IMG/VR virus record: IMGVR_UViG_3300004888_000001 | Location: 1-55,935 of that record | Strand: one strand, 5' to 3' | DNA from: a virus | Length of the DNA stretch: 55,935 nt | Shown here: positions 1 through 55,935 of the stretch, piece after piece | Layout: every line of letters begins with the position of its first letter | Numbering within the stretch: the first letter of the stretch is position 1 | Notes under the pieces: model-generated | Databases searched by the model: none | What the model was told of the DNA's origin: nothing | What the model saw: the letters and a program-made list of their open reading frames with translations, nothing else | Translations under genes and position numbers: made by a program

Positions 1-99
1 AGTCAAATTCCGTTTTCTTTTGTCATCTAACCTGTTACTAGCTTGAGTCACTGATTCGGCTATGACTGACAAAGATCCGTTTTGCACTCCTTCTACAAT
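1..99. repeat. Direct terminal repeat, left copy (identical to 55837..55935)
   Basis: Bases 1-99 (agtcaaattccgttttc...cactccttctacaat) recur exactly at the right end of the window. This is typical of a circularly closed or terminally redundant viral contig. Confidence 0.95.
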
Positions 100-159
100 A
101 GAGTTAAGCAGAGTGATAACTTCATTCTGCGTTAATTGTGATGTTTTTAGTTTAGCCAT
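1..159 (-). CDS. Hypothetical protein, 5' part (53 codons) of an ORF that crosses the circular junction (about 80 aa in total)
   Basis: ATG at 159 (minus) is preceded by GGAGACCTAACAGG. The frame is open to base 1 and continues in phase at 55836 down to TAA 55753-55755. Confidence 0.5.
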   Translation of the reverse strand, partial: MAKLKTSQLTQNEVITLLNSIVEGVQNGSLSVIAESVTQASNRLDDKRKRNLT

Positions 160-253
160 CCTGTTAGGTCTCCATGTTATTTATCGGTTTTTGTCGTGTG
201 AAGTGTCATATTAGCCGTTATCGGTCACCAGTCAATACCGTCTGCTGGAAATT

Positions 254-466
254 TCAAACAAACTTGGTCAATTTGATCTTACTTGGTTCCTTATCCTTGT
301 ATTTAACTTGAAACCCTACTTTTATCAACTCCTCATCCGTTAGGTAACTAGCTATCTTTTCAGCTTCTGTAACATTGAAACATTCAATGTTAATGTTGTC
401 GTACATCCCTGATGCAAGATGACTCTTGATGTTCATTGCGTCGTCAAGTTCTGAGTTGGAACTCAT
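254..466 (-). CDS. Hypothetical protein (70 aa), first gene of the leftward early operon
   Basis: ORF track entry. Its leader ACGGAAAAGACTGATG resembles the leaders at 55733, 55444 and 9950. Confidence 0.55.
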   Translation of the reverse strand: MSSNSELDDAMNIKSHLASGMYDNINIECFNVTEAEKIASYLTDEELIKVGFQVKYKDKEPSKIKLTKFV

Positions 467-479
467 CAGTCTTTTCCGT

Positions 480-1690
480 AGGCTTAGTTAGTAATACCTC
501 AATGTATCGACATTCCACCACCGAGTCAATGAGAATTTCCATCAATTTGCTGGAAAATCCAGATTTCTCAGAATTTGGATGGAATGCCTCGCCTCCGTCC
601 GTAGGACTCTACCCCCCCTGCCCCCTGTTCGCGCTTGCAGCCACTGTCATCGCTTGCCACTGCACTCACTCACTGCACTGCACTGTTGTTATAGTACTAT
701 GTTATACATAGCTATACATACGTATACATACATAGGTAGCTATATAGCTATGCCTATATAGTAGGCAGGTATAGCCTATTCGTTATGCACCTCTGTTATT
801 GGCATGGTACTTGCACTGTTAACAGATCTATTGCATCCAAACATTAGGGTTAATAATAGCACCCCAATATGGCATATAGCTCTGTTATGGGTGCTTGTTA
901 TCACATTAAAAAAAGGGCTAAATTGCGTCTAACGCGATATCTCACTTGTTACCCTACTCTGATACCCTTATCTGTTATAGCTCATTCTGAGCTATCTGAG
1001 CCCTGTTTAAGACGATATCGAAAACGGCCATTTTTGCCTGTTATTGCACTGTCGTTATTTTAAGCACTTACCTTTGATATCCAGCAATCTGTGCCGTACC
1101 GGCTACCAACACGCTACTTAATACTGTCATTGGTTATCCCTCTATATAGTACTATTCCATACATACTTAATAAAAATAATAAAATGATACTTCTCTGGGG
1201 ACACCCCCCCCCTAGAAGGCGCGGCAGCTCAGCGACCTCTCACGGGCATCCAGTCCCCCTCTGGCTCCCGCGTATTATTTGTATTAAGTATGCAGTGAAC
1301 CCTTTCATATCCTACGATAGGTACTTACCCTCCGAAAATTTATTAAGTAGCGTTTGCGTAGTAACTGCACTATATAAAGCTGTTTTGAGCTTCATATTAG
1401 GTACTGACCAAATTTATTAAGTTGGCAGCCCATGTGAAAATAACCGCCCTTAGCGGTATTGGGCATATCCTGTATATCATGGCAAGGGTAGCTATATATC
1501 AAGGAAACAGGCATGATATCAAGCTATCGGATTACTTTGGAAAATCCATAAAGATTTTAAAGATTAGGGTTTGAAAGGTCGAAACCATATGGTAGAACTT
1601 ACATATCTCAAGTGAACAACACTTGAGCGGGCAACACTGCCCACAACTAACCAGCCCAACAACGGGCAACAACTTAACGAGGAATCAAGA
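480..1690. promoter_or_regulatory. 1.2-kb non-coding divergent control region; candidate origin or regulatory hub
   Basis: Only short Cys/His/Leu-rich track ORFs without an RBS lie here. Genes diverge from both sides. An AT-rich repeat-laden core (690-1190) is bounded by C-tract/GC-rich islands (600-690 and 1197-1272). Confidence 0.6.
684..1060. repeat. Iteron-like array of TGTTAT motifs
   Basis: TGTTAT occurs 7 times (687, 700, 794, 883, 896, 973, 1039). Copies at 794, 883 and 973 have (C/A)TCTGTTAT context and lie 89-90 bp apart. CGTTAT is at 781 and 1053. TTGCACTGT is at 811 and 1044. The palindromic (A)TAGCTAT motif is repeated at 707-752. Confidence 0.6.
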
Positions 1691-2278
1691 ATGAGTAATA
1701 CAACTAACAAAGCAAACAGTATCCAGTTCTCTAACGCGTTCGGGCTTAATGTTTCACAACTCGCAATTGTAGCCGCTGAATACAAGCTACCCGCTGAAGC
1801 TGTCGCAAAGTTCCCTACAATGGTTCGGCACTATCTCAACTTGAGACACGTTGTCAACGGTGAATACGCTCGACAGTGGGAAGGGAACGTATCACACTCG
1901 CTTATTGAGTCCAGTGGCCAATATCTTGAAACTGAAACTGAAAGTCAAGACGGCGACTTACAGAACTTGACTTATTGGGTGTTGAATGAAACCGGCGAAG
2001 AATACCTAGCTATGGCAACGCTAGTTTTCGAGACGTTGGAAGCTGAAGCACTTGACTCAATTAACTATAGGGCAAGTGGAACGCTCGTTTACAGTCGCCC
2101 ACTGAGCGAGTCCGGGCGGTTTGTTGTAATGATCGACCGGGGTGATAGTTTCACTTATGGGCGTTGGGTTGCCAGCAAGTATATCAACGGTCAAAGCGAG
2201 TGGTGCAACGGTCGCTACTTTGATAGCCGTGGTGATGCTCACGAATGCTACCTAGCATTGTTCAAGCCAGCCAACTAA
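1691..2278 (+). CDS. Hypothetical early protein (195 aa)
   Basis: ORF track entry with RBS GAGGA 8 nt upstream. It is the first gene of a same-strand, tightly packed operon. Confidence 0.75.
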   Translation: MSNTTNKANSIQFSNAFGLNVSQLAIVAAEYKLPAEAVAKFPTMVRHYLNLRHVVNGEYARQWEGNVSHSLIESSGQYLETETESQDGDLQNLTYWVLNETGEEYLAMATLVFETLEAEALDSINYRASGTLVYSRPLSESGRFVVMIDRGDSFTYGRWVASKYINGQSEWCNGRYFDSRGDAHECYLALFKPAN

Positions 2279-2374
2279 CCAGTGGGCATAATGAACGGGC
2301 TTGACACTGAGCGAGCCCGCTATTATCTTCACTGTTTTAACCGGGCTTTACTGCCCACAACTGAAAGAATTACA

Positions 2375-2845
2375 ATGGACCCTAACGCAATACTAGCTAT
2401 TATTTTGGACCCTTCAACAGGGCTAGCAGAACGTGCTGAAGCTATTAGAAACCTTGAAGCGTGGCTTGACGGTGGTGGTTTTGTACCAACTATCGACAGT
2501 GAACAAGTAGATAGGCTTACAAACCACTTGGAAGCGTGGGCGAACGCTATCACACCAGAAGCAAAGTATCTGTTGAACGGTTGGACGGGCTCACAAGATT
2601 CGATGACTTACGCTCTTGTAAGCTCCAACGGTTTGAAGCGTGGAAGCGTGCGACCTAACGTCGAAAGCTCGCTAGAGTGGTTGGCTACGTTGTGGGGGAA
2701 ATTGGAAACTGAATTGAGAAAAGACATTGTGCCAGCGGTGCAAGCAAACCCAGAAGCGCCAAGCGAGCCACGTTCTCACGAGAACTTACTATTAACTGTT
2801 CAAAGAATCGAACGTATGCTAGATCGTTTACTTGAAGCTCTCTAG
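2375..2845 (+). CDS. Hypothetical early protein (156 aa; the track gives an alternative start at 2282)
   Basis: The stretch from 2282 to 2375 contains the same hairpin family found in other intergenic gaps (gggcttgacactgagcgagccc, 2296-2317). The internal ATG at 2375 is therefore favoured. Confidence 0.6.
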   Translation: MDPNAILAIILDPSTGLAERAEAIRNLEAWLDGGGFVPTIDSEQVDRLTNHLEAWANAITPEAKYLLNGWTGSQDSMTYALVSSNGLKRGSVRPNVESSLEWLATLWGKLETELRKDIVPAVQANPEAPSEPRSHENLLLTVQRIERMLDRLLEAL

Positions 2846-2919
2846 TGGTTGTGGCTACGGGCTTGTGATAACGAGCCCGCTACCGTACTCACTTTAGAAA
2901 CCCTTTACAGGACAAAACT

Positions 2920-3282
2920 ATGAAAACAAAACAACAGCTTGGATCGGAAACTCGCAAACAATACCTTACAAAAGCCCGCCGTTATGCAGCTCGTAAGCTA
3001 CGTGAGCAACGAAACGAGAATCAGTTTTACCGCCATGACAGTTTCAACGTGGCTGAAGCGTTGCGGCTCACTGAAGCTCGCTTTGTTGATATGGGGACTT
3101 TTGGCGTTGAAAGTATAACCAGTGTGAACGGCGATGAAACTTACGGGCTGGAGCTTCAATATCTAAACAGCGGTGAAATGTATTGCCTAACGCTTTGCTT
3201 TGATGAAACCCGCAATTGTTTTCTAATTGCTTGCGTTGGTAATATGATTGAAGCCGCTGAAGCTGAAGCCCGTAACCGATAA
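2920..3282 (+). CDS. Hypothetical early protein (120 aa)
   Basis: ORF track entry, preceded by the conserved leader ACTTTAGAAACCCTTTACAGGACAAAACTATG. Confidence 0.75.
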   Translation: MKTKQQLGSETRKQYLTKARRYAARKLREQRNENQFYRHDSFNVAEALRLTEARFVDMGTFGVESITSVNGDETYGLELQYLNSGEMYCLTLCFDETRNCFLIACVGNMIEAAEAEARNR

Positions 3283-3358
3283 GTGAAAACAGCCAACGGG
3301 CTTGTGATAACGAGCCCGCTACTGTTTACACTTTAGAAACCCTTTATTGGATAAAACT

Positions 3359-4438
3359 ATGCCTACTTTCAAAAATACAGATACAACTTTTCACGCTTTT
3401 GCAAGCCGTAACCACTCAGAAGGCAAGTGTGGCAACGTGAGCTTTGACAGTGACACCATTTACAGCTATGGAAACCACTTTCCAATAGCCACGTTCCACG
3501 GTGACAGTTTTGTATTGATAACAAACCGAACCCACTCAGTGACAACAGCGGGCCATATATCGGCAACCAAACGAGCGTTAAACCACGTTCCAAGCTGCAT
3601 AGTTGATAACGTGAACCCCACAACAACTAGAGAGCATCGGGCGAACGTGGTTGATATGCTCCAGCGGGCTCGCTCACTTGCTAACGACTGGACACGTTCA
3701 CGCAAATACAAAGATATGATACAGAGCGACATTGTGGGCTTGATGAATAGCGTAAAGCGTTATTTAGCTCACTTCAAACTGAAGCCGTTAAAAACCACTG
3801 CAAAAGCTCTTGAAGCATTCGCACCTATCGGCTTTGCTTATCCTCAAAACGTGATTGACGGCGAAAATCAAAAACCGAGCGAGCAAAAACAAGCTGCCGT
3901 TGTTGCCTTTATTGGCTACCTACTCGACTGGTCTGAAGCCGAATCCATCAAGCAAGCTGCAAAACGTAAGCGTGACGCTGCAAAACTAGAGCGTGAGCGA
4001 GCCGCTGAAGCTGAAGCCGCTGAAGCCCGCCGCGTAGAATCTGAAGCTCGGGCGCTGGAACGTGTAGCCGAGTGGCGCACCGGAGCCACCGTGGCAGCTC
4101 GCTTGATGGATGCCGCGCCCGTAGCGTTGCGGTTGTCAGTCGGCGGCTTTGAAGTCGAGACGAGCCACGGCGCAGCGGTTAGCGTTAGCGACTTCAAACG
4201 AGCGTGGAAAGCATTAAACAGTGGAAAGCTCCAACCCGGTACGACCATTGGTGACTTCACTTTCAACCGTATTGACGGCATTGGTGACAAGCGTATCATT
4301 GTTGTTGGCTGTCACCGTATCCCAATCAATGAAATACGGGCGTTAATTGACTTTGTAACCCGTGATAAACGCCCGTGTGATTGCGGTGGTTCGATATCTC
4401 ACGATGTTTGTAATACTTGCGGCAAGATTGACGATTAA
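3359..4438 (+). CDS. Hypothetical early protein (about 359 aa) with an Ala/Glu/Arg-rich helical segment and a C-terminal CxC...CxxC cluster
   Basis: ATG 3359 sits at the same distance from the conserved leader as ATG 2920. The track start at 3347 is a TTG inside the leader. Confidence 0.7.
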   Translation: MPTFKNTDTTFHAFASRNHSEGKCGNVSFDSDTIYSYGNHFPIATFHGDSFVLITNRTHSVTTAGHISATKRALNHVPSCIVDNVNPTTTREHRANVVDMLQRARSLANDWTRSRKYKDMIQSDIVGLMNSVKRYLAHFKLKPLKTTAKALEAFAPIGFAYPQNVIDGENQKPSEQKQAAVVAFIGYLLDWSEAESIKQAAKRKRDAAKLERERAAEAEAAEARRVESEARALERVAEWRTGATVAARLMDAAPVALRLSVGGFEVETSHGAAVSVSDFKRAWKALNSGKLQPGTTIGDFTFNRIDGIGDKRIIVVGCHRIPINEIRALIDFVTRDKRPCDCGGSISHDVCNTCGKIDD

Positions 4439-4518
4439 GTAACTCCAGCGGCGGGCTTGGATACTATCAAGCCCGATACTGTATTTACTTAAATTACCCT
4501 TTACAGGATAAAACTACA

Positions 4519-4965
4519 ATGTTTGCTTTCATTTGTGATGCTAATGGTATTGAACTTTTAGGTTCTGACTCTGTTGTTAATATCGATGGGCGGCTGTCGC
4601 TATCTAATCGACTAGTTGAAGTAAGCGAGTATAAACAGGGTTTTAAAAAGCACTTTCGCCACAAGTTCGACGATATGGTTTTCGTTGCCTTTACAAAGTC
4701 GATACGTGACTTCAAGCTGGAACCAGATAAGCTCCATCGAATACCGAAACACCCTAGCGAGCGCGAAACCGCGATAACCCGCAAGCTGTCCGATATGGAA
4801 AGCCACTTGTCGCGATGGCCCGATGTTAAAAGTACTCGTTGCCTTTACTCAGTTAATGCCGATTGCATGGTGGTTCGTTGTCGAATCGTAAGCCCGTCGT
4901 TTAGCGGTGGTGGTAAGTTTACGCGAATTGTAGACTACGATGAAAACGGAAACAAAGTGAGCTAA
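4519..4965 (+). CDS. Hypothetical early protein (148 aa)
   Basis: ORF track entry with the conserved leader CCCTTTACAGGATAAAACTACAATG. Confidence 0.7.
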   Translation: MFAFICDANGIELLGSDSVVNIDGRLSLSNRLVEVSEYKQGFKKHFRHKFDDMVFVAFTKSIRDFKLEPDKLHRIPKHPSERETAITRKLSDMESHLSRWPDVKSTRCLYSVNADCMVVRCRIVSPSFSGGGKFTRIVDYDENGNKVS

Positions 4966-5013
4966 CCGGGCGACGTTGCCCACAAACCTTAAACCTTCAC
5001 TGGATAAAAATCG

Positions 5014-5589
5014 ATGATCAAAACATTAGCGCAATTGAAACGAGAAGCCGCAAACTATACTTGGCAGCTTTATTCATACTCTCACGATAACGGTAAGACT
5101 GAAAAGGCTCACCCGTTTAAAGACTTTGTTCGCACAGTCGATAAAGTGGCAAGTAAAGAGATTTACTTATCAACTCCGAGCGGCAACAGTTCTTCAATGC
5201 CATTTGGCAAAGCTGCAAATTGGAAGTTCGAAAAATACCTGTATAACGATACTGACGTTATTGTTGTTGTGCAAGTACCAGAAAGCTCAGTGGTGATGCG
5301 ATACCATTTGAGACCGGTAAAGGTTAAGCCCGCTCACGTTGACCATATCACCTTATCTGAATTTTGGGCTTGTGACTTCTGTATGGTTCAGCGAGTGGAT
5401 ACAGAGACTGTGATTGTTCGATTCGATTCCGCCCTTGAAAGCGGCAGACCTTGCGGACTTGCTCGCTATGCAACACTTAAAAACGTAAGTGGTCAAAGAG
5501 CTAACGACAATGGCACGCTTAAAGTACTAGGTACTGCTATGGTGGCTCGCAAACTATTTGACTGGATAGGTGACGACAGCGAAGTTTAA
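5014..5589 (+). CDS. Hypothetical early protein (191 aa)
   Basis: ORF track entry with the related leader ACCTTCACTGGATAAAAATCGATG. Confidence 0.7.
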   Translation: MIKTLAQLKREAANYTWQLYSYSHDNGKTEKAHPFKDFVRTVDKVASKEIYLSTPSGNSSSMPFGKAANWKFEKYLYNDTDVIVVVQVPESSVVMRYHLRPVKVKPAHVDHITLSEFWACDFCMVQRVDTETVIVRFDSALESGRPCGLARYATLKNVSGQRANDNGTLKVLGTAMVARKLFDWIGDDSEV

Positions 5590-5595
5590 AAATAG

Positions 5596-5643
5596 AGGGT
5601 TGCCGCGTCCGGGCGGTCTAACGGGTTCGATACCCGCAACCCT
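5596..5643 (+). ncRNA. Mini tRNA-like element: acceptor-type stem, a small hairpin and a T-arm-like hairpin
   Basis: The 7-bp stem agggttg (5596-5602) pairs with caaccct (5637-5643). It encloses the hairpin ccgc/gcgg (5603-5616) and cggg-TTCGATA-cccg (5622-5636). Confidence 0.3.
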
Positions 5644-5682
5644 ATTGGATTTTACTTTACGAACCTTAACAGGATAGAACTG

Positions 5683-6231
5683 ATGGACGACGATAGAATT
5701 TTACAACTAAAACCTGAAGCCATTGACGGGCGCGAGTTCGACGGCGTGATTATTGATCGAGTGCAAAATAACAAAATGTATTTTGACTCTAGCGGGTTAC
5801 TTGGTGATGATACCGACAACGATTTTACAGTGAGCTACGTTTGGAAAAGCAATGAGGGTAACTGGCAAGCCGTCAAGCCCTCAGAATTTAAACGAGCTTT
5901 TGAGAGTTGTAAGAACGTGATTCGCGTAACTGATGGACGATTCGGTGAGCTTCACATTGAGGTAGACAGTGAGTGGTCGCCGTTAGACTTGAAGCTGGCT
6001 GAGCGTGACTATTTAACCTCAATGCTTCGTTATTACAAGTGGTTGAATCAACACGGTTTGAGCTATTCAGCAATCAGCGGTGTTAGGATTTTGCCTCATG
6101 GCTCACGTCAAAACAAAAACAAGTATGACGTGGTTGACTTTCGAGTTAAGGGTAAGACTGAACCAGTTTGTTTCCCGCGTCACCTAGTACCGTTCACCGA
6201 CAATGTGGTATTTAATAGAGGTGTTAAATAA
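5683..6231 (+). CDS. Hypothetical early protein (182 aa)
   Basis: ORF track entry with the conserved leader ACTTTACGAACCTTAACAGGATAGAACTGATG. Confidence 0.7.
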   Translation: MDDDRILQLKPEAIDGREFDGVIIDRVQNNKMYFDSSGLLGDDTDNDFTVSYVWKSNEGNWQAVKPSEFKRAFESCKNVIRVTDGRFGELHIEVDSEWSPLDLKLAERDYLTSMLRYYKWLNQHGLSYSAISGVRILPHGSRQNKNKYDVVDFRVKGKTEPVCFPRHLVPFTDNVVFNRGVK

Positions 6232-6644
6232 TGAAAACCAAAACCCAACCTTTGAACGTCCGCGCATCCCTACTGAGCTTTAGCAATCCGCGACGGCTAG
6301 CAGTGTTCCACAATTGGCCCGCTGGCAATCAAACAGTGACTTGCGAGTTTGCAGTGCAGCGTGACGATTCAGGACGCGAACGAGTCCTCAGATGGACTCG
6401 ACACAAGCCGAAAACGACCTATTGGTACGACTGGTGCCGAATCGTTGACGGTGACGACAGGCGAACCTATGTCATCTGTTATGAGGGCGACCGGCGAACT
6501 GAACCAGTTGACAATCAGGGGCGACACTGCCCTGTTGAGGGTCAAGCTGTTATTTACAGCGGCTCACTAGATGAATGCGTTGTAACTAACGCTGGGCCGA
6601 TTTTTAGAATGATTCAATCAATGAGGAACTTGACCAATGGCTAA
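6231..6644 (+). CDS. Hypothetical early protein (137 aa)
   Basis: ORF track entry. Its ATG overlaps the upstream stop (TAATG coupling). Confidence 0.7.
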   Translation: MKTKTQPLNVRASLLSFSNPRRLAVFHNWPAGNQTVTCEFAVQRDDSGRERVLRWTRHKPKTTYWYDWCRIVDGDDRRTYVICYEGDRRTEPVDNQGRHCPVEGQAVIYSGSLDECVVTNAGPIFRMIQSMRNLTNG

Positions 6645-6732
6645 ACTATGTATAATTGTCGTTCTGTTTATGATCTGCTGGCCTATCGGCGCGGCAGCTC
6701 TTTGTATCTCTCTTGCTTATGGTGATGGATAA
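6637..6732 (+). CDS. Small hydrophobic peptide (31 aa: MAKLCIIVVLFMICWPIGAAALCISLAYGDG)
   Basis: Too short for the track. AGGA lies 10 nt upstream. The start overlaps the upstream stop (AATGGCTAA) and its TAA overlaps the next ATG (6732). It has one predicted TM helix. Confidence 0.45.
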   Translation: MAKLCIIVVLFMICWPIGAAALCISLAYGDG

Positions 6733-6998
6733 TGATTGATCGAACTAACAACACTTGGAACAAGGTCTGTATCAAAATCCTCTTTGAAGAGTTTAAAGAG
6801 TTCGACCGTGGCAACGGCATCGGTCCGGCTATCAATTGGTTGATCGATCAAGAGGATACTGGACGTTCACCGTTTCACGTTCGTCGATTGCGTGATAAGT
6901 TCCGGCATGATCTGGCAACAGACTATGTGGATAGAATCACTGAGCAAGCGACGGCTTCATACCTTTGGCCCTCTGAGCAAGCTTTACCGATCGGATAG
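6732..6998 (+). CDS. Hypothetical protein (88 aa), last gene of the rightward early operon
   Basis: ORF track entry. Its 3' end overlaps the convergent primase gene by 62 nt. Confidence 0.55.
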   Translation: MIDRTNNTWNKVCIKILFEEFKEFDRGNGIGPAINWLIDQEDTGRSPFHVRRLRDKFRHDLATDYVDRITEQATASYLWPSEQALPIG

Positions 6999-9288
6999 CA
7001 AAGCAGCGACCGTGAAAGTCCAATTCCTTAATCGCTTGAGCCTTTCCAATCTCTTGTAAATCGCCGTTGTCAATTAAGTTGGCAACGGCTCTTTTTATGG
7101 AATTAGTTGCACCAATTTTCGAATCCTTAAACGGTTTGACTCGTACAAGCTTGCGGCTGAAATATGCCCAAGGGATCACGCGGGCTCGATGCAGGGTTTG
7201 AGGTACGCCATACGATTTTAACTCTTTAGCGTCCGTAATTAGGTACTTGACAATCGAATCCTCAATTTTCTTTACTTCATTTGATTCAGAGTTTCCATAG
7301 TTGGCTAACGCGCCACCTTCGCCAAACTTGGATTGAAGCTTTGCCAAATTGTATTTGACGAATCGCTCAGCCCAACCCCAAGACTCTGAATCGATGACTG
7401 GGTTATAAGGATTGATACCAACGGCGATGAGTCCAGCGACCTTGATTGTATTTAAGTGGACGCGATTCCAAAGTTCACAGATAACGTCTTCGTTGGATGT
7501 GTTGATTGTATGGTCGCACTCTTTATCAAGATGACGGCTGAGCGATTTAGCACTATCGGCAATTGGCATCTGATAAGGTAGGTTTGCGTCAATGTTGCGA
7601 AAAGATTGCTCGGCCAATGCCATGATGGATTCGCATAGTTTTTGGTTTGGATAGATTAGCGGTCCTGCCTCATTGGATGGAACGCGGATTCCGTCATATT
7701 GCGCAATGATGAATCGTGGCAGCAAACCCGTCTCAATCATTCCCTCATCGGCCAGAATGTCGAACCACTTAGGGGCAGACTCAGCAACGAAACTAAACGC
7801 TGGCGACTGGATGGATTTGGTGTTGCGTTCTGCATCTGAATACGCTGTTGGATCAACGCGACCTGAACGTCCTGATTTCGAATAGAAGTCCAGCATAACT
7901 TTTTGTGTCATCAGATCAGCACCTATCGCAGTTGGTGACGTGATACGTTTTAGCATTGGACCAAATTCGCCAAAGACAGAAACGAATGACTTGCTCTGAT
8001 GTTCGCTCATGTATCGCAACAGAGCTTGACCGCTGGCAAGGTCGCCCGGACCCTTAAACGCTCTAATTGTGGGCATCATCGGCGCGACGGCATCAAAGAT
8101 TTTCTCATACGATTTTGAAATTGCTTCCTTGCCGCGTCCAGTCTTTGCAAGCAAAAGCAAATACAGGTTTAGACCATAGCCGCTTGCATTATAAGATCGT
8201 CCTGCGATACCTGCCATGAGCCCCAAGGAACCAATGACTGCGATCTCTTTGACTGGCTTCCAAGCCTGCTCATAAGTAAAGTTTGCAATCTCACCTACGA
8301 GTCCGGGCGGCTTTCCATAAGCCAATCCTGAATCGTCAACAATGACTGGATCAATTGGTTTTGCAGGTACAGGTTCGGGCTCAGTTATTGACTGCAACGA
8401 GTTGAGTTTGTCAACAGGGCTAAGCTCCTGAAGATCCATTTGAGCTACGAGCCCCGTAATATCAACTTCAGGAATCAAACGATCAAAAGCTTTTGTGATA
8501 GAATCCTGCACGTATTTGTTACGCTGAGCTTTCGGTCTTTGCCCTAAACCTGAAGCGCGAAACATGCGCGTGATTTGTCCGCGATCCTGAGTGTAGAAAG
8601 CAAGAATATCAATCAGAGCAAAATCAGCGCGCGAATGATCGCCAGCATGATAAGTATCAATATCGCCGCTAAACAATGCCTTGAATTTTTCTCCGTTCGC
8701 GGCATCAGAAGCCATGCGATATATATCGTCATCACTAGAATCAGAGACAACACTGTGAGAACTATATTCAGAATTAGCATCAACACCCTCCAAGGATACC
8801 CACAGTTGGTCGACGAGAGTTTGAGCCTCGCGAATCGGTACATCGTGATAAACGTCACCGGTCACAGTCATAAACGAATAAGGGTAAACTTCAATCGCAT
8901 CGCGACGGCGACCAGATGGAAGTTTGCCACGGACAAGTATATGCAAACCCTTCCCTGAAGGCGACCGTTCAGAGTAAGAATTGAGTTGCTGAAAATAGAA
9001 TTGCTGATTAGCTCTTGCAGCAGGATCATCAGTGTCGTCGAAGTCAACGAAGATGTATGGGTCGTCATGGCTGACCATGAATCCAATTCCATCGTAAGCG
9101 ACACTGTGAGCAATGGCATCTTCAAAAGAACACCAAGTTTCAGGATCGTTTTTCTTTGCCCACTTTTTCGTTAGTGGGTTGAGTGGAACTTTTGTTGGCT
9201 TCCCTGAATCAGTATCTCGATACAGCCAACAGACCCATTGTTTTCGCTCTTGAAGCTCCAACGGGACATTAAAGAAAGCAGAATTCAT
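6937..9288 (-). CDS. Bifunctional primase-polymerase (prim-pol) fused to a P-loop helicase-like domain
   Basis: The N-terminus has prim-pol motifs (IFVDFDD, SGKGLHILV). The centre has a P-loop (AKTGRGKE). At 783 aa it matches the size and layout of phage/plasmid primase-helicases. Confidence 0.8.
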   Translation of the reverse strand: MNSAFFNVPLELQERKQWVCWLYRDTDSGKPTKVPLNPLTKKWAKKNDPETWCSFEDAIAHSVAYDGIGFMVSHDDPYIFVDFDDTDDPAARANQQFYFQQLNSYSERSPSGKGLHILVRGKLPSGRRRDAIEVYPYSFMTVTGDVYHDVPIREAQTLVDQLWVSLEGVDANSEYSSHSVVSDSSDDDIYRMASDAANGEKFKALFSGDIDTYHAGDHSRADFALIDILAFYTQDRGQITRMFRASGLGQRPKAQRNKYVQDSITKAFDRLIPEVDITGLVAQMDLQELSPVDKLNSLQSITEPEPVPAKPIDPVIVDDSGLAYGKPPGLVGEIANFTYEQAWKPVKEIAVIGSLGLMAGIAGRSYNASGYGLNLYLLLLAKTGRGKEAISKSYEKIFDAVAPMMPTIRAFKGPGDLASGQALLRYMSEHQSKSFVSVFGEFGPMLKRITSPTAIGADLMTQKVMLDFYSKSGRSGRVDPTAYSDAERNTKSIQSPAFSFVAESAPKWFDILADEGMIETGLLPRFIIAQYDGIRVPSNEAGPLIYPNQKLCESIMALAEQSFRNIDANLPYQMPIADSAKSLSRHLDKECDHTINTSNEDVICELWNRVHLNTIKVAGLIAVGINPYNPVIDSESWGWAERFVKYNLAKLQSKFGEGGALANYGNSESNEVKKIEDSIVKYLITDAKELKSYGVPQTLHRARVIPWAYFSRKLVRVKPFKDSKIGATNSIKRAVANLIDNGDLQEIGKAQAIKELDFHGRCFAIRSVKLAQRAKGMKPSLAQ

Positions 9289-9307
9289 CCGTGTCTCAAT
9301 TCAGATT

Positions 9308-9535
9308 TTAGTAGCTAAGAGGTTCGCCTTTAAGCGTTTCGTAAAGTCGTTGGATCGCGTTCACGCCGGGACGGCGCGGAGGGTTCGGACTCATCAAAGT
9401 TGACAAGAATGCTTTTGTGCAGTCGCATTCTTTTGCCAACTTGTCAAGGGTCCAAGTTCGATCACGATGCTTCATCAGCTCTATCGTGGTTTCCAGAAGC
9501 GTCTTTCGCCTCGGTTTTTGCTTAGTTTTTGCCAT
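9308..9535 (-). CDS. Small HTH DNA-binding regulator (75 aa)
   Basis: The helix-turn-helix-like segment WTLDKLAKECDCTKAFLSTLMS. The gene sits at the divergent promoter region, next to a 20-bp palindrome. Confidence 0.6.
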   Translation of the reverse strand: MAKTKQKPRRKTLLETTIELMKHRDRTWTLDKLAKECDCTKAFLSTLMSPNPPRRPGVNAIQRLYETLKGEPLSY

Positions 9536-9558
9536 GTCAAGCCCAAATTGAAAATAGT

Positions 9559-9578
9559 AAATCGGAGGTCTCCGATTT
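9559..9578. promoter_or_regulatory. Perfect palindromic operator candidate AAATCGGAG-GT-CTCCGATTT
   Basis: The 9-bp arms are perfectly inverted with a 2-bp spacer. It lies at the predicted +1 of the minus-strand promoter. An extra half-site ATCGGA is at 9596. Confidence 0.5.
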
Positions 9579-9582
9579 GATA

Positions 9583-9611
9583 ACTCTATTAACTTATCGG
9601 ATATTAGTCAA
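9583..9611 (-). promoter_or_regulatory. Sigma70-like promoter for the HTH/primase transcript
   Basis: On the minus strand: TTGACT (9606-9611), a 17-nt spacer, then TAGAGT (9583-9588). Confidence 0.45.
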
Positions 9612-9651
9612 ACCTAATTTGATAATTCTCAAATCTTTTTCTGAATTGCTG

Positions 9652-9679
9652 TTGACTGATGAACCGAAGATGATAATAT
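9652..9679 (+). promoter_or_regulatory. Sigma70-like promoter P1 for the plus-strand middle operon
   Basis: TTGACT (9652-9657), a 16-nt spacer, then TAATAT (9674-9679). Confidence 0.5.
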
Positions 9680-9759
9680 CTTCAATGTCGAGCGGGAAAG
9701 CCGGAATGCTCGAAATAAAAGACACTGAGATCGCAACGGGCGGCCCCTAATGCGATGGC

Positions 9760-9788
9760 TTGACAGAGCGGAGAGACGTTTTTAATAC
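9760..9788 (+). promoter_or_regulatory. Sigma70-like promoter P2
   Basis: TTGACA (9760-9765), a 17-nt spacer, then TAATAC (9783-9788). Confidence 0.5.
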
Positions 9789-9855
9789 AACGCAGGATGT
9801 GAAAATGTCAGCAATGACTTTCAAGGTAAGTAAGCCTCGATTCATCCTGCTAAAT

Positions 9856-9920
9856 GGCAGGGTGCCTGTCTTCGGTAACGATTCAGGTGGGCTAACGTCC
9901 TTGACACACCCTGTCTTTTT
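9856..9920 (+). terminator. Leader terminator or attenuator-like stem with a U-tract upstream of gene 9950
   Basis: ggcagggtg (9856-9864) pairs over 9 bp (one G-U) with caccctgtc (9907-9915). TTTTT follows at 9916-9920, and the RBS GGGAGAAGAC lies 16 nt downstream. Confidence 0.45.
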
Positions 9921-9949
9921 AAAACAATTTAACCCATCGGGAGAAGACG

Positions 9950-10420
9950 ATGAGTATTGACTACCAGCCACAAGCGACAGCAACAACTCCAACCAAAGAG
10001 CAAATCGATGAGGCTCTTGCTCATTGGCAGAGAGCCAAAATTGCACTCCAGCAATGGAAAGATCACGAGCAAGAACTGCGGCGATACATTGTTGAACATG
10101 GCGGCTTCTTTGATCCAACTAAGGACAAGGGAACTGAGACTGTTGAGCTTGGCAACGGTTACAAGCTAAAAGCTAAAAAGTCAATTAGCTACAAAGTGGC
10201 TAACAAAGAAGGTGAAGCCTTCGACGTTCTTTCTAAACTAACCGCTCTTGGTGAAGTTTCAGCTCACAAAGCAAAGAAGATTTTTCGCTTTGACGCTGAG
10301 CTTCGACTAAGTGAGTACAAAGAACTTAACAACTCAGAACGTGCATTGGTTGACTCTGTGTTGACAACTAAACCCGGAATGCCGACTCTGGAATTGGTGG
10401 AGCCAAAAGCAAAGCCATAA
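9950..10420 (+). CDS. Hypothetical protein (156 aa), first gene of the replication/recombination operon
   Basis: ORF track entry with the strong RBS GGGAGAAGACGATG. Confidence 0.75.
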   Translation: MSIDYQPQATATTPTKEQIDEALAHWQRAKIALQQWKDHEQELRRYIVEHGGFFDPTKDKGTETVELGNGYKLKAKKSISYKVANKEGEAFDVLSKLTALGEVSAHKAKKIFRFDAELRLSEYKELNNSERALVDSVLTTKPGMPTLELVEPKAKP

Positions 10421-10483
10421 CATTTCCGTCTCGATAAAACGTAACTATCGAGCAAACCCCATCTTTTAGAATGGAACAGTTTT

Positions 10484-11023
10484 ATGAAATTTGAGTACAC
10501 TTTCAAGCTTGCTCCTGCAACCGAGCAGGTAACACGAAAAGCAACAATTGGAGTCAACGGACAAGTTGAAACGGTTGTTGTTAAGGATAACCAACTTATT
10601 CGTGAGTTCGCGATCAATGAGGTTGTTGACGTATCGTTTTTCGATGTTGATGCAGCAGGTAATCCGTCAACGCCAACAGTCGTCTTGCAAAACAAAACGA
10701 TGGTTGATGATGTTGCACCTGAAGCGCCCGGCGTTGAGATTTGCGTAAAGCAAATCGAAGCTGAAGGTTCAACTGAAGGTTCAACTGAGCAAGTTGAACA
10801 GGAAGACGGAAACGGAGAAGGTCCGGTTGGAGAAACCAACACTGAGCAGCCTCCAGCAGAGCAAGAAGGTGTCGAAGCAATGCAAGACACTGAGCCACCT
10901 GCACCTCCAAAAGTTGAAGAACCAACAGTTGAGCAGACTGGTTCGACTGTTGCCGACAATGGAGCAATTGTTCCTCCACCTGCAAACGGATCAGGTGCTA
11001 GTAACCCAGAAACTAGCGGCTGA
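10484..11023 (+). CDS. Hypothetical protein (179 aa): beta-rich N-terminal half and a very acidic Glu/Pro-rich C-terminal half
   Basis: ORF track entry. The antisense track ORFs here are low-complexity artefacts. Confidence 0.7.
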   Translation: MKFEYTFKLAPATEQVTRKATIGVNGQVETVVVKDNQLIREFAINEVVDVSFFDVDAAGNPSTPTVVLQNKTMVDDVAPEAPGVEICVKQIEAEGSTEGSTEQVEQEDGNGEGPVGETNTEQPPAEQEGVEAMQDTEPPAPPKVEEPTVEQTGSTVADNGAIVPPPANGSGASNPETSG

Positions 11024-11028
11024 TGCTG

Positions 11029-11060
11029 ATTCAGGATAACAGTTTGTTATTCTGAATTTT
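11029..11060 (+). terminator. Rho-independent terminator-like hairpin
   Basis: The 13-bp stem attcaggataaca/tgttattctgaat (one G-U) has loop gtt and is followed by TTT. It begins 6 nt after the stop codon at 11021-11023. Confidence 0.55.
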
Positions 11061-11140
11061 CAGAATGATGGAGCGTATGTAAATCCATATAAGGTCCGAT
11101 TTATTCGGCTTAGGTTTTACCCTTTGTTATTCTGATAGTT

Positions 11141-11246
11141 TGATCGGTGACTGAGCGGTTTAAAGTTAATCCTAAACAACAATGGTGAGCGATAGCTTTT
11201 AGGAAGCTGCAAGAATCCATCGCAGGTTCGAATCCTGCCCGATCAA
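11141..11246 (+). tRNA. tRNA-like element (Leu-UAG-like) with a 25-nt insertion between the D arm and the anticodon stem
   Basis: Perfect 7-bp acceptor stem (tgatcgg/ccgatca). Type-II D arm (act-GAGCGGTTTAA-agt). Anticodon arm tagct-TTTAGGA-agctg. 12-nt variable region. T arm gcagg-TTCGAAT-cctgc. At 106 nt it is too long for a canonical tRNA. Confidence 0.4.
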
Positions 11247-11447
11247 CTTGAGTGAGAGGTGCAATACCGCTATTAAAATAAGGGGTTTGAATCCCTAAGT
11301 CGCTCACTCATTCATTTACTTATGTCAAAAACACTGGTAACTTTTAAGCGAGACAGCCAGTAGTTTCAACCACGGGAAACGTCAACGAAATCATAAGAAT
11401 TTGTAGGTACAAGTGGTTGTTTTTATTTACATTCACGGAGGAACACG

Positions 11448-11708
11448 ATGTTAGTTTTGTCAAGAAAGAAAAATGAGATGGTAATGGTCGGTGACGACAT
11501 AAAGATAGTCGTTGTCGAGATTCGAGGCGATAAGGTACGATTGGGGATTGAAGCTCCGCAAGATGTGCCAGTTCATCGAATTGAAGTTTATGACGCAATA
11601 CAACGAAAGAAGAAGGCAGACCCAGATGCTACCAATCAAATCAACAAACACGATACCGATCAAGCCCCACTCAGTCGTTTTCGGACCAGCAAAGTCGGGA
11701 AAGACTAG
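11448..11708 (+). CDS. csrA: CsrA/RsmA-family RNA-binding translational regulator with a C-terminal extension (86 aa)
   Basis: MLVLSRKKNEMVMVGDDIKIVVVEIRGDKVRLGIEAPQDVPVHRIEVYDAI matches the CsrA signature (MLxLxRK...GDDIxI...GxxVRxGIxAPxxVxVxRxExY). The RBS is ACGGAGGAACACGATG. Confidence 0.9.
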   Translation: MLVLSRKKNEMVMVGDDIKIVVVEIRGDKVRLGIEAPQDVPVHRIEVYDAIQRKKKADPDATNQINKHDTDQAPLSRFRTSKVGKD

Positions 11709-12297
11709 ACTGATACCCACATTGGAGGCTCCGCTTATCTGCTCAGTAGATAAGGGTTTGGAGAGCATTCGGCAATATGATATTCCATGCGTCGAATGCG
11801 ATACTTGGGATCATGTTGCAGCATTCAATCAATTCGTTTACAGCGACAGTGCTGAAAAGAAAAAGTATCGTGAGTTCGTTTACGATGATTTGACTGAGGC
11901 AGCCGGGCTTTATTTAGTTAAGTGCTTACTTGCTAACAAAGATGGTCGGAAGGCGTACGGTCAAATGGGCGAAGAGATGATGTACTTCTTTCGCGCCATT
12001 CGAGAACAACGAGAACATATTGCAGTGCTACTTTGCAAAGAGGAACGTGTTCAGAACAATAAAGGTGAGCTGCTTTATTCGCCAATGTTGCCCGGACAGG
12101 CTTTGCAACCAATGGTTCCATACATGTTCGGTCAGATTTACCACATGGAACTTTGGACTCATCCTGAAACACAGCAGATTCACGAAGTTCTTCGGTGCAA
12201 ACGCAATCAGCAAATCGAAGCTGGTGATCGAAGTGGTAAGTTAGCCGAGATTGAGTATGCGGATCTCGGAGCAATCAACCGAAAGATAATGAGTTAG
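11626..12297 (+). CDS. Sak4-like RecA-fold ATPase (AAA_24-type), recombination-associated
   Basis: Walker A VVFGPAKSGKTRL lies near the N-terminus when translation starts at ATG 11626. Walker B is FVYDDLTE. The start overlaps the csrA 3' end by 83 nt. The track start at 11512 lies inside csrA. Confidence 0.7.
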   Translation: MLPIKSTNTIPIKPHSVVFGPAKSGKTRLIPTLEAPLICSVDKGLESIRQYDIPCVECDTWDHVAAFNQFVYSDSAEKKKYREFVYDDLTEAAGLYLVKCLLANKDGRKAYGQMGEEMMYFFRAIREQREHIAVLLCKEERVQNNKGELLYSPMLPGQALQPMVPYMFGQIYHMELWTHPETQQIHEVLRCKRNQQIEAGDRSGKLAEIEYADLGAINRKIMS

Positions 12298-12303
12298 AAG
12301 TTG

Positions 12304-12369
12304 TGTAGGGCTAAGATGGTTCTGGCGCACCATGGGTGTCCAAAGTGGGTTCAATTCCCGCCCCTACGC
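12304..12369 (+). tRNA. Short tRNA-like element (CAU anticodon position), non-canonical
   Basis: Acceptor tgtaggg/ccctacg (U-G at pair 1:72). Tiny D arm aga-TGGT-tct. Anticodon arm ggcgc-ACCATGG-gtgtc (two G-U pairs, C at position 33). T arm gtggg-TTCAATT-cccgc. Only 66 nt long. Confidence 0.3.
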
Positions 12370-12428
12370 CTGTCAATTGACTTTGTGGGCATGACAACCC
12401 AGAACATTAAACCTAAGAGGATAAATTT

Positions 12429-13199
12429 ATGTCAGCCAATTTAGAAGGCGTTTTCAATCCGCAAGACCATGACCCAACAATGGGCGGTGGTCAGTCACTT
12501 CCACCGTCTGGTCCTGATGGTTGGTTAGTAACCATCATCGAATCAGAGATGAAACAAACGCAAGATGGTACGAGTATGATGCTCGCTCTGCTTTGTAAGA
12601 TCATGGAAGGACCGCAAACAGGCGTTGAAGGTTATTGGAACCTTAATTTGGGACATGGCAACCCGGTAGTGGTTCGCATTGCTCAGCAAGCTCTATCCTG
12701 CATCTGTCACGCTGTCGGTCATCTTGGACCGATTCAGAACACAGAACCGTTGCATAACAAGCCTTTCCGTGTTGTTGTTGCTGCTCAAATCGATAAGGCA
12801 ACAGGTTTGCCTGATGAACGCGGTTACGTTGACATTAAGAAGGTGTTGCGTGCCGATGGGTCAAAGTTGAGCGATCCTGCCGGGAGTGGCGGTGCGGCTC
12901 CCGCACCGGCGCCAGCTCCAGCGCCGACAGCACCTGCTCCCTCGCCTGCCCAAGCAGCACCGGCGCCAGCTCCAGCTCAGCCTGCGATTACTAACGAAGT
13001 TCCTTTGCCGGCCGCTCCAGCAGCCCCACCGGCAGCTCCAGCTCAGGCAGCACCTGCTCAGGCTCCAGTGACTCCGCCGACTCCGGCAGCAGGCTGGCCG
13101 ACAGAGGCAGCTCCGGCTCCACCTGCGGCACCTACTCAGGCAGCGCCGGCACCTGCGACAGCGCCGCAAGGTCAACCGTGGAATCAACCTTCACAATGA
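12429..13199 (+). CDS. DUF669-like phage ssDNA-binding/recombination accessory protein with a roughly 110-aa Pro/Ala-rich tail
   Basis: It lies directly after the Sak4-like ATPase, and the N-terminal 150 aa resemble DUF669 proteins. The C-terminus is (P/A)n low complexity (GC-rich, 12880-13190). Confidence 0.55.
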   Translation: MSANLEGVFNPQDHDPTMGGGQSLPPSGPDGWLVTIIESEMKQTQDGTSMMLALLCKIMEGPQTGVEGYWNLNLGHGNPVVVRIAQQALSCICHAVGHLGPIQNTEPLHNKPFRVVVAAQIDKATGLPDERGYVDIKKVLRADGSKLSDPAGSGGAAPAPAPAPAPTAPAPSPAQAAPAPAPAQPAITNEVPLPAAPAAPPAAPAQAAPAQAPVTPPTPAAGWPTEAAPAPPAAPTQAAPAPATAPQGQPWNQPSQ

Positions 13200-13305
13200 C
13201 CTAAGTGTTTAACCGTCGGTTGTGACGGAGAATGTGTACCATTCTAAGAACTTGAGCGGTCGGTGTCTTCTCCTCCGTTTAGCTGGCAACAGCACGCTCA
13301 TTTAT

Positions 13306-13423
13306 GCCGAAGTATGCAAACGGTATAGCAGCCCTCCTGTGAGGGGGTGGTTAGGGGCATCGATCAACGATCTGGTCGTATTGATGAACACCTGATGTGA
13401 GGGTTCGAATCCCTTGTTCGGAA
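13306..13423 (+). tRNA. tRNA-like element (His-GUG-like) with a roughly 50-nt insertion in the variable region
   Basis: U8-A9 are present. D arm tgc-AAACGGTATA-gca. Anticodon arm ccctc-CTGTGAG-ggggt. T arm gaggg-TTCGAAT-ccctt. The acceptor pairs only 5 of 7. The 50-nt insert folds as a hairpin (atcaacg...cgtattgat). Confidence 0.3.
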
Positions 13424-13438
13424 TTTTATTTTTAACCT

Positions 13439-14251
13439 GTGAGAGCAATGAATCATCAAGTTGTCAACATGGATTGCGTTGAATACTTACGCAACGGATT
13501 GTTATGCCCACAGAAGTTTGATTTGATAGTTGCAGATCCGCCATTCAATATAGGACAAGACTATCAATCGTACAAGGATGTAATGACAGAAGGGCAGTAC
13601 AACAGATTCACTGAGAGTTGGGTTGCTCACTGCTTTATCAAATTGAAACCGGGAAGCGTCATGTTTTTACATGGCTCAACTAAGGTATGTAGGACAATAA
13701 CTAGAATTCTATTTTTACTTGGCTTGGAGAAATTTGTCGAACAGGAAATAGTTTGGGCGTACAATTTTGGTCAATGCAACTTCAGCCGATTCATCGAGAC
13801 TCATTGCCGCGCAATCGTGGTTCGTAAGCCCGGTGATGAACGCAAATGGAATGTTGAGTCAGTAATGACTCCATCCAAGCGATTGCTTATGGGTGACAAG
13901 AGAGTTGAAACATCAAAATACAAAGGCATGATACCGTTCGGAACTGTTTGGGGTGTGAAATCTGAAGACAGTGTGCCACTGGAGCCAATGGAGGGCGAAC
14001 CTAATTGGGGTCGCGTCCAAGGCAATAATAAAGAACGTCGCAAGGGACACCCTAACCAGTTACCTGAACGATACATTGAAAGGATAATTCTTGCATACTC
14101 AAACCCGCCAGATACTGTTTTTGATCCTTTTGGTGGTAGCGGGACTACTATTGCAGTAGCAAAGAAACTTGGTCGTAACTGTGTAACAACCGATATAAGC
14201 GAGTGGAATTGTGATTCGATTAAGCAAAGATTGGGAGCCTCAAATGGTTAA
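13439..14251 (+). CDS. DNA amino-methyltransferase (N6-adenine or N4-cytosine), beta-class motif order
   Basis: Catalytic motif IV IVADPPFNIG comes before the SAM motif I FDPFGGSGTTIAVA. The track start is GTG at 13439; an in-frame ATG is at 13448. Confidence 0.85.
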   Translation: MRAMNHQVVNMDCVEYLRNGLLCPQKFDLIVADPPFNIGQDYQSYKDVMTEGQYNRFTESWVAHCFIKLKPGSVMFLHGSTKVCRTITRILFLLGLEKFVEQEIVWAYNFGQCNFSRFIETHCRAIVVRKPGDERKWNVESVMTPSKRLLMGDKRVETSKYKGMIPFGTVWGVKSEDSVPLEPMEGEPNWGRVQGNNKERRKGHPNQLPERYIERIILAYSNPPDTVFDPFGGSGTTIAVAKKLGRNCVTTDISEWNCDSIKQRLGASNG

Positions 14252-55836: not shown

Positions 55837-55935
55837 AGTCAAATTCCGTTTTCTTTTGTCATCTAACCTGTTACTAGCTTGAGTCACTGATTCGGCTATG
55901 ACTGACAAAGATCCGTTTTGCACTCCTTCTACAAT
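55837..55935. repeat. Direct terminal repeat, right copy (identical to 1..99)
   Basis: Exact 99-nt match to the window start, read directly. Confidence 0.95.

Follow-up and report, generated by a model that had tools for sequence, protein, structure and literature searches.

A phage-borne csrA at a fixed position in an uncultivated siphovirus lineage: probable host reprogramming and a separate set of early-leader cassettes

A small open reading frame (ORF) in the genome of an uncultivated siphovirus raises the questions of whether it encodes a genuine member of the CsrA/RsmA family of RNA-binding proteins and whether such a protein would act on the phage's own early messages or on those of its host. 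The ORF, csrA, lies on the plus strand at 11448..11708 of the IMG/VR virus record IMGVR_UViG_3300004888_000001, analyzed here over its whole length of 55,935 nucleotides (nt; hereafter, the window), and encodes 86 amino acids (aa). A first-pass annotation, made from the sequence, had proposed that the phage uses this protein as an early-to-middle translational switch on five early genes sharing a GGA-containing leader, and/or to hijack the host Csr regulon.

Database comparisons show that the ORF is a genuine, intact, phage-borne CsrA/RsmA homolog. Its product, which begins MLVLSRKKNE, matches Pfam family PF02599 with E 1.7e-24 (86 bits, the cut-off being 27; profile positions 1-52 of 53), PHROG 9500, annotated as 'CsrA-like regulator' (E 2.4e-21), and every solved CsrA/RsmA/RsmE chain in the PDB (full-length chains at E 6.6e-15 to 4.3e-13, a truncated CsrA at 2.9e-9), bearing out the near-complete CsrA/RsmA signature initially read at 11448. 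When the protein is aligned with E. coli CsrA, P. aeruginosa RsmA, B. subtilis CsrA and its closest homologs, from Planctomycetota, residues L2, L4, R6, H43, R44 and E46 do not vary, and V40 and V42 reach at least 90% conservation. Mercante et al. are said to have reported in 2006 the functional importance of these CsrA residues in strands beta-1 (L2, L4, R6) and beta-5 (V40, V42, R44, with E46). The protein consists of a core (residues 1-57) followed by a disordered tail, and an AlphaFold monomer model assigns predicted local distance difference test (pLDDT) values of 74-86 to residues 1-60, with a predicted template modelling score of only 0.36, placing strands at 11-14, 18-26 and 29-35 and a helix at 44-57. 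As in cellular CsrA proteins (E. coli CsrA, Pseudomonas RsmA/RsmE, Bacillus/Geobacillus CsrA), the profile match is full-length, the beta-1 and beta-5 RNA-binding residues are kept and a beta-strand core with a C-terminal helix is predicted. Unlike in those systems, core identity is only 44% to the E. coli and 52% to the B. subtilis protein, the product carries a 27-residue overprinted tail, and the phage encodes no CsrB-like sponge RNA. The product is probably active on RNA. Its ribosome-binding site, read from the sequence as ACGGAGGA at 11435..11442 on the plus strand, 5 nt upstream of the ATG, agrees with the Shine-Dalgarno (SD) sequence first given for csrA, and the csrA leaders of related phages likewise contain one or two GGA motifs.

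To place the gene in its lineage, we used as query the primase/helicase encoded on the minus strand at 6937-9288, between the early block and csrA, which retrieved metagenomic relatives at 46-77% identity. Ten contigs were fetched, representing nine distinct phages with primases 49-77% identical to that of the window, and csrA was located in them by tblastn and by profile searches of six-frame translations. In eight of the nine (L013/L014, L015, L016/L017, L018, L019, L020, L045 and L046), csrA lies directly upstream of an AAA_24 ATPase gene; its overlap with that gene had hidden it from gene callers in L016 and L018. In the ninth phage, L021, whose primase is 49% identical, the site is occupied by an unrelated 62-aa ORF. 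Sequence comparison thus shows csrA to be a conserved, fixed-position gene of this phage lineage, held as a core component of the replication module and not as a sporadic accessory. Other phage CsrA homologs (PHROG 9500 and 5527, RsmM of Pseudomonas F116-like phages, the Vibrio 'CsrA-like regulator' and PTXU04 gp28) are likewise small PF02599 proteins of tailed phages; in Vibrio phage D65, however, csrA sits among small early genes, whereas in the window it belongs to the replication module and overlaps the AAA_24 gene. The 88 GenBank phage records matching the window CsrA reach at most ~54% identity, a CsrA query of IMG/VR returned only three distant homologs (42-55% identity), and neither early-protein nor primase queries of IMG/VR produced a close relative of the window.

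The nearest homologs set this protein apart from other phage CsrAs: they are chromosomal CsrAs of Planctomycetota. Its core is 79% identical to a Roseimaritima CsrA and 75% identical to a Sedimentisphaerales CsrA, all named nearest homologs belong to the Planctomycetota, and the long contigs bearing the nearest homologs are cellular chromosomes and not phages. This similarity offers the only hint to the host, which may be a planctomycete. With the alleles of sister phages, on the other hand, the core shares only 40-54% identity. The CsrAs of L013, L016 and L018, which share 86-90% identity among themselves, no longer have the C-terminal helix, and alleles of different groups share 40-58% identity, whereas the ATPases of close relatives share 63-80%; residues L2, L4, R44 and E46 are kept in all phage alleles. 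The lineage offers an allelic series, from near-canonical to highly divergent, with which one can ask which properties of CsrA matter to a phage. At the DNA level, the csrA core of the window is 65-67% identical to cellular csrA and 54-63% identical to the phage alleles, and its GC content is 0.41, a phage-like value, compared with 0.52-0.53 in cellular csrA. A recent capture from a host is not supported by this level of DNA identity or by a composition that is already phage-like; a host-type copy may have taken the place of an earlier allele in the window, or the host-like allele may be the ancestral form, retained, and the DNA is compatible with either. As a separate observation, the top-scoring database homologs (P0002-P0028) are 122-149 aa long, about twice the length of CsrA, which suggests that they are tandem two-domain CsrA fusions.

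The leader shared by five early genes, the second element of the initial proposal, is also real. The box CCTTTACAGGATAAAACT, allowing up to 3 mismatches, occurs exactly five times in the window (2902, 3341, 4498, 4994 and 5664) against 0.02 occurrences expected, and its copies end 0-3 nt upstream of the ATGs at 2920, 3359, 4519, 5014 and 5683. The SD contexts of the five leaders are TACAGGACA, TATTGGATA, TACAGGATA, CACTGGATA and AACAGGATA; the description of these SDs as embedded in a core like that of CsrB holds in that three of the five boxes read ACAGGA(U/C)A, resembling the CsrB repeat, the other two reading TTGGA and CTGGA. The 18-nt box is, however, the 3' end of a larger intergenic cassette, in which a GC-rich stem-loop placed right after the upstream stop codon is followed by the motif GC(C/T)(G/A)-TAYYGT (found 7 times, with 0.87 expected), a U-rich spacer, the SD, 7-9 nt and the ATG. 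The repeat reaches 66 nt in three copies (family D2). All five cassettes lie on the plus strand. The first (2857..2922; family D2) comprises a GC stem-loop at 2858-2879, GCTACCGT, the box at 2902-2919 and the ATG at 2920, and the second (3296..3361; family D2), 89% identical to it, has its stem-loop at 3297-3318, GCTACTGT, the box at 3341-3358 with the SD TTGGA, and the ATG at 3359. The third (4453..4521) contains a stem-loop at 4453-4474, GATACTGT, the box at 4498-4515 and the ATG at 4519. In the fourth (4966..5016; D9), the stem-loop GGGCGACGTTGCCCACAA precedes the box at 4994-5011, with the SD CTGGA, and the ATG at 5014, and the box differs very little from the L018 leader AACCTTCACTGGAGCAAACT. 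The fifth (5590..5685) has a long GC stem-loop, the box at 5664-5681 and the ATG at 5683.

The same layout of stem-loop, TAYYGT and SD is present in all relatives, L021 included, and box sequences are more similar within one genome than across genomes. The genes between the cassettes have no known function and are mosaic across relatives: of the seven relatives searched, at most two contain a homolog of any given early gene of the window, in contrast to the replication genes, which are found in nearly all seven. A composite intergenic stem-loop motif repeated through a hyperplastic region (families D2-D4, D7 and D9) is also what has been described for the promoter-early stem-loop (PeSL) cassettes in the hyperplastic regions of T4-type phages (PMC2839356, PMC4122927). 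As in T4-type phages, short composite stem-loop motifs recur between variable genes of unknown function with mosaic content; unlike there, the phage is of an unrelated type, the cassettes include the ribosome-binding site and the promoters are putative. We read the leaders, in part by inference, as separate PeSL-like cassettes punctuating a hypervariable early block, in which GGA is simply the Shine-Dalgarno sequence.

As regards transcription signals, only the copy at 2301-2329 scores well as a sigma-70 promoter (TTGACA-17-TATCTT). The TAYYGT element following the stem-loop is -10-like but, read by eye, lies only 11-14 nt from any -35-like hexamer, and intrinsic terminators are not enriched in positions 1-12500 (11 versus 13.1 ± 3.1). 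An SD-sequestering mini-hairpin (CCU..AGG), spotted by eye in the leaders of all relatives, was rejected when it proved no better than composition-matched shuffles (stem-length sum 117 versus 113.5 ± 7.1; pairing probability 0.91 versus 0.82), the copies of the window falling at or below the shuffle median. At 2888-2905 and 3327-3344, the leader core (ACT)CACTTTAGAAAC resembles the T7/SP6-type promoter core CACTATAG. A T7-type promoter in the leader core ACTCACTTTAGAAAC was nevertheless rejected, and the likeness is probably a coincidence, because no phage RNA polymerase gene was found among the proteins scanned (about half of those predicted). Three exact DNA matches to the box in IMG/VR were likewise set aside as chance, lacking an ATG or stem-loop. 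Separately, the 9-mer TGCCCACAA occurs 10 times against 0.5 expected (1638, 2352, 4977, 8067(-), 12383(-), 17135, 20448, 22322(-), 30543 and 55112) and forms with its complement the stems of many early-region hairpins (TGCCCAC...GTGGGCA) in the window and in all relatives; these hairpins may represent a protein-binding palindrome rather than an RNA structure.

We favor, with a probability of roughly 0.6, an overall reading in which an intact csrA reprograms the host and the early leaders are a separate, PeSL-like feature. The protein would bind GGA-containing RNA as cellular CsrA does, and by adding it during infection the phage would shift host post-transcriptional control of metabolism, motility or defence toward favoring its own replication. 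Its main targets are probably host mRNAs, because its binding surface is almost host-type, and we infer that host reprogramming is the most likely and best-supported role. The hijacking of the host Csr regulon put forward by the first-pass annotation thus fits the host-like core, and it has precedents. CsrA homologs occur in ~1.2% of phage genomes, where manipulation of the host or of its defences has been proposed (PMC7366521, PMC8450108), and knock-down of one phage csrA by CRISPR interference produced smaller plaques, in a study that describes the role as previously untested (PMC11879866). Translational control of the host is taken over by RsmQ, the homolog encoded on plasmid pQBR103 of Pseudomonas fluorescens (PMC9928087); RsmQ is similarly a CsrA homolog on a mobile element that commandeers host translation, as would be expected of the window protein, the differences being that the carrier here is a phage and not a plasmid and that RsmQ function is experimental whereas the window protein is known from its sequence. 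Phage CsrA homologs had thus been surveyed and annotated, and one knock-down phenotype published; what is new here is a csrA with fixed synteny and overprinting onto an AAA_24 gene, lineage-wide conservation and a near-host-type core. No match to FliW turned up among the proteins scanned, about half of those predicted.

Several observations weigh against this reading. A scan of genome collections returned no primase relative above 39% identity, the matches being assorted metagenome-assembled genomes, which leaves CsrA similarity as the single pointer to a host. Sigma-70 promoters are not enriched in positions 1-12500 (23 versus 18.2 ± 4.2), making the promoter activity of the cassettes putative. 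GGA occupies the SD position in 5/5 boxed leaders as compared with 24/65 other genes, as a CsrA link would likewise predict, and since single-site CsrA targets look like plain SD sequences, the phage leaders might yet be bound by CsrA. Finally, the absence of csrA from L021 covers only 22 of its 51 kb.

The alternative that survives best, although we consider it unlikely, is that phage CsrA, made from the replication module, turns off translation of the early genes by binding the GGA within the SDs of their boxed leaders, acting as an early-to-middle switch and possibly regulating itself through ACGGAGGA. T4 RegA, a phage translational repressor that binds the ribosome-binding sites of many early mRNAs, would be the functional analogue of such a switch, with no sequence relationship to the window CsrA. 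Besides the GGA at the SD of all five boxes and the CsrB-like form of three of them, the switch would account for the position of a lineage-conserved csrA outside the early block, for GGA-type SDs in the cassette leaders of every csrA-positive relative and for the csrA leader itself, which has GGAGGA in the window and GGAACGGA in L013 and L015. The five boxes are nonetheless paralogous copies, and GGA in 5/5 does not amount to five independent observations. In the 45 nt preceding the start codon, GGA occurs once in four of the five leaders, where it sits at the SD, and twice only in that of the fifth cassette; two of the five (TTGGA and CTGGA) lack a primary A(N)GGA site. The CSRA_TARGET criteria (PMC4066749) call for A(N)GGA at the SD plus at least three sites, or two primary and two secondary ones, with site pairs spaced 10-60 nt apart. 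In a simplified implementation of these multi-site rules, 0/5 boxed leaders pass and csrA itself fails too, and the comparison with shuffled controls that the first-pass annotation had suggested gave no enrichment, with 3-4 passing genes genome-wide against 3.7-5.7 in shuffles. The authors of CSRA_TARGET themselves caution that single sites are inseparable from SD sequences (PMC4066749).

The structure and distribution of the leaders also tell against a CsrA switch. Folding predictions do not place the leader GGA in a hairpin loop, and conservation far exceeds what CsrA recognizes, extending ~20-50 nt past the GGA into the GC stem-loop and the TAYYGT motif. Box types do not co-vary with CsrA types, because L016 and L018 have CsrAs that are 90% identical and boxes that differ, whereas the window and L018 share a box and have CsrAs only 50% identical. 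No CsrB/RsmZ-type sponge RNA was found in the genome, which reaches at most 10 A(N)GGA per 300 nt, mostly in a coding stretch, and contains no cluster of CAGGA(U/C/A) with more than 3 copies. Leaders of this kind in a relative without csrA had been named in advance as evidence against the switch; L021 does keep the cassette layout with no CsrA-like ORF in the 22 kb retrieved, syntenic site included, though it is one distant relative. On this evidence, the proposed switch on the phage's own early leaders appears weakened, finding no positive support beyond the SD itself. There is no evidence here for a new regulatory mechanism, and a CsrA-leader circuit would be of interest only if shown experimentally.

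A further feature adduced for such a circuit, a hairpin with AGGA in its loop 240 nt upstream of csrA, is present but does not stand as a CsrA site. The 5-bp hairpin TAGCT-TTTAGGA-AGCTG (11193..11209, plus strand; loop UUUAGGA) falls inside a tRNA match, a degenerate tRNA-like element at 11141..11247 on the plus strand. A sensitive Rfam scan scores RF00005 at 11141-11246 with 36.3 bits (gathering threshold 29; E 4e-6), the acceptor, D and T arms being intact and a 45-nt insert standing where the anticodon arm is expected, and although default ARAGORN found no tRNA in the window, relaxed ARAGORN fits a tRNA interrupted by a 12-nt 'intron' to the 11141-11247 element, with the hairpin-bearing stretch as its long extra arm. 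On these models, the hairpin is an arm of the tRNA-like element and not an isolated CsrA-type site, a further point against the switch. Similar elements lie 5' of csrA in several relatives.

Elements of this type are found between genes throughout the plus-strand replication module, at 11141-11247, 11249-11311, 12304-12372 and 13306-13423 in the window and at equivalent intergenic spots in relatives (L019 8253-8322, L020 7888-7960 and L021 7570-7642). Their acceptor and T arms are good and their anticodon regions aberrant, with a 45-nt insert, a 3-nt loop or a 40-nt extra arm, and default ARAGORN assigns odd anticodons to the elements of relatives (Cys-ACA, Val-AAC), as well as a CUA amber-suppressor-type tRNA in L021. 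They may be tRNAs that have degenerated, or signals for processing by RNase P/Z. An Rfam scan of the whole window at gathering thresholds gave zero matches.

Still less likely, in our estimate, is a combined scheme in which this siphovirus lineage keeps csrA overprinted onto the ATPase gene and the protein would act both on the host and, RegA-like, as a repressor of the phage's own cassette mRNAs through a single SD-embedded GGA, the unusually host-like window allele being adapted to the Csr system of its host.

A third alternative arises from the overlap between csrA and its neighbor, which also explains the C-terminal tail. The AAA_24 (Sak4-like) ATPase gene occupies 11626..12297 on the plus strand and starts inside csrA. 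Its product matches Pfam AAA_24 with E 1.2e-19, the match running from residue 16 at profile position 5, and its N-terminus, ML-P-IKSTNTIPIKPHSVVFGPAKSGKT, aligns with the N-termini of all relatives; the start must be the ATG at 11626, because the Walker A motif (VVFGPAKSGKT) and a Pfam match beginning at profile position 5 require it. The two genes consequently share an out-of-frame, plus-strand overlap of 83 nt (11626..11708), which encodes CsrA residues 60-86. The C-terminal extension of ~25 aa relative to the 61-aa E. coli CsrA, singled out in the first-pass annotation as absent from typical CsrA proteins, does exist, the extra 25 residues being there because the csrA frame runs 83 nt into the ATPase gene, but it is not a special feature: hydrophilic, variable tails are usual in this CsrA clade, the closest homologs having total lengths of 62-85 aa. 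Among the relatives, csrA encodes 96 aa in L013 (overlap of 143 nt), 94 aa in L018 (137 nt), 72 aa in L016 (71 nt), 61 aa in L046 (23 nt) and 58 aa in L045 (11 nt), and in L020 it encodes 62 aa and ends 81 nt short of the ATPase gene. The DNA of the csrA core is ~50% identical to that of relatives, a figure that climbs to 70-87% from ~11636 onward, AlphaFold predicts tail residues 61-86 to be disordered (pLDDT 40-49), and conservation of the tail motif NQ(I/V)N(K/E)HD.DQ..L...RTS.VG.D simply reflects that of the ATPase N-terminus, IKSTNTI.I.PH..VFGPAKSGKT. By these sequence criteria, the extension is a by-product of overprinting, or read-through, into the ATPase gene and not a functional CsrA domain, making the locus a clean example of a protein "extension" produced by reading into the next gene.

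Such an arrangement could mean that csrA acts locally and not globally, the overlap tuning or coupling translation of the recombination ATPase and the downstream replication genes, a view we find more doubtful than the two preceding alternatives. The adjacency of csrA and AAA_24 in 9/10 phages (window counted), mostly with overlaps of 11-143 nt, and the order of tRNA-like element, csrA and ATPase retained in several relatives would suit it. There is, however, no A(N)GGA near the ATPase start, where the sequence reads GAAGAAGGCAGACCCAGATG, the gap in L020 dispenses with overlap altogether, and adjacency is equally expected of a gene that became fixed where it inserted. That csrA is a decaying or functionless passenger from a host is very improbable, its greater divergence than the flanking ATPase and its omission by gene callers in two relatives being outweighed by an intact ORF at the same position in nine phages (window counted) whose primases are only 49-77% identical, by the key residues kept in all alleles and by an ameliorated core GC content that points to long residence. 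The initial annotation is, on balance, confirmed in its observations and partly supported in its interpretation.

The window is a circularly closed, complete genome of ~55.8 kb, because its first 99 nt (1-99) are identical to its last 99 (55837-55935), and its GC content is 44.7%. A minus-strand ORF starting at 159 exits the left end and continues across this 99-nt terminal junction. The tape-measure protein, major head protein, portal and large terminase are encoded on the minus strand. Along with the primase/helicase, the replication set comprises a DUF7173 protein, the AAA_24 ATPase, a DUF669 protein, a DNA methylase, a helicase and a MazG-like protein, and additionally a Cas4-domain exonuclease and a DNA polymerase; at the csrA locus the order is DUF7173, a small ORF, the tRNA-like element, csrA, the AAA_24 ATPase, DUF669 and the methylase. 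No integrase turned up among the proteins scanned (about half of those predicted), and positions 9000-14000 gave no DNA-level match to GenBank phages.

Three further observations concern repeats and palindromes elsewhere in the genome. Short direct and inverted repeats (TATACATA, CTGTTAT, ACTTAATAAA and TGGAAAATCCA) crowd a gene-poor stretch of ~1.2 kb (467-1690) that adjoins the beginning of the early block; this stretch is a candidate for an origin or a regulatory region. The DUF669 protein has a long, repetitive, Ala/Pro-rich C-terminal tail, with a 10-copy degenerate DNA repeat (family D1) at 12889-13171. Upstream of its gene, at 12365-12400, the palindrome CTGTCAATTGAC is followed by the hairpin TTGTGGGCATGACAACCCA; both are conserved nearly base for base in L013, L015, L016 and L018, and the palindrome looks like an operator.

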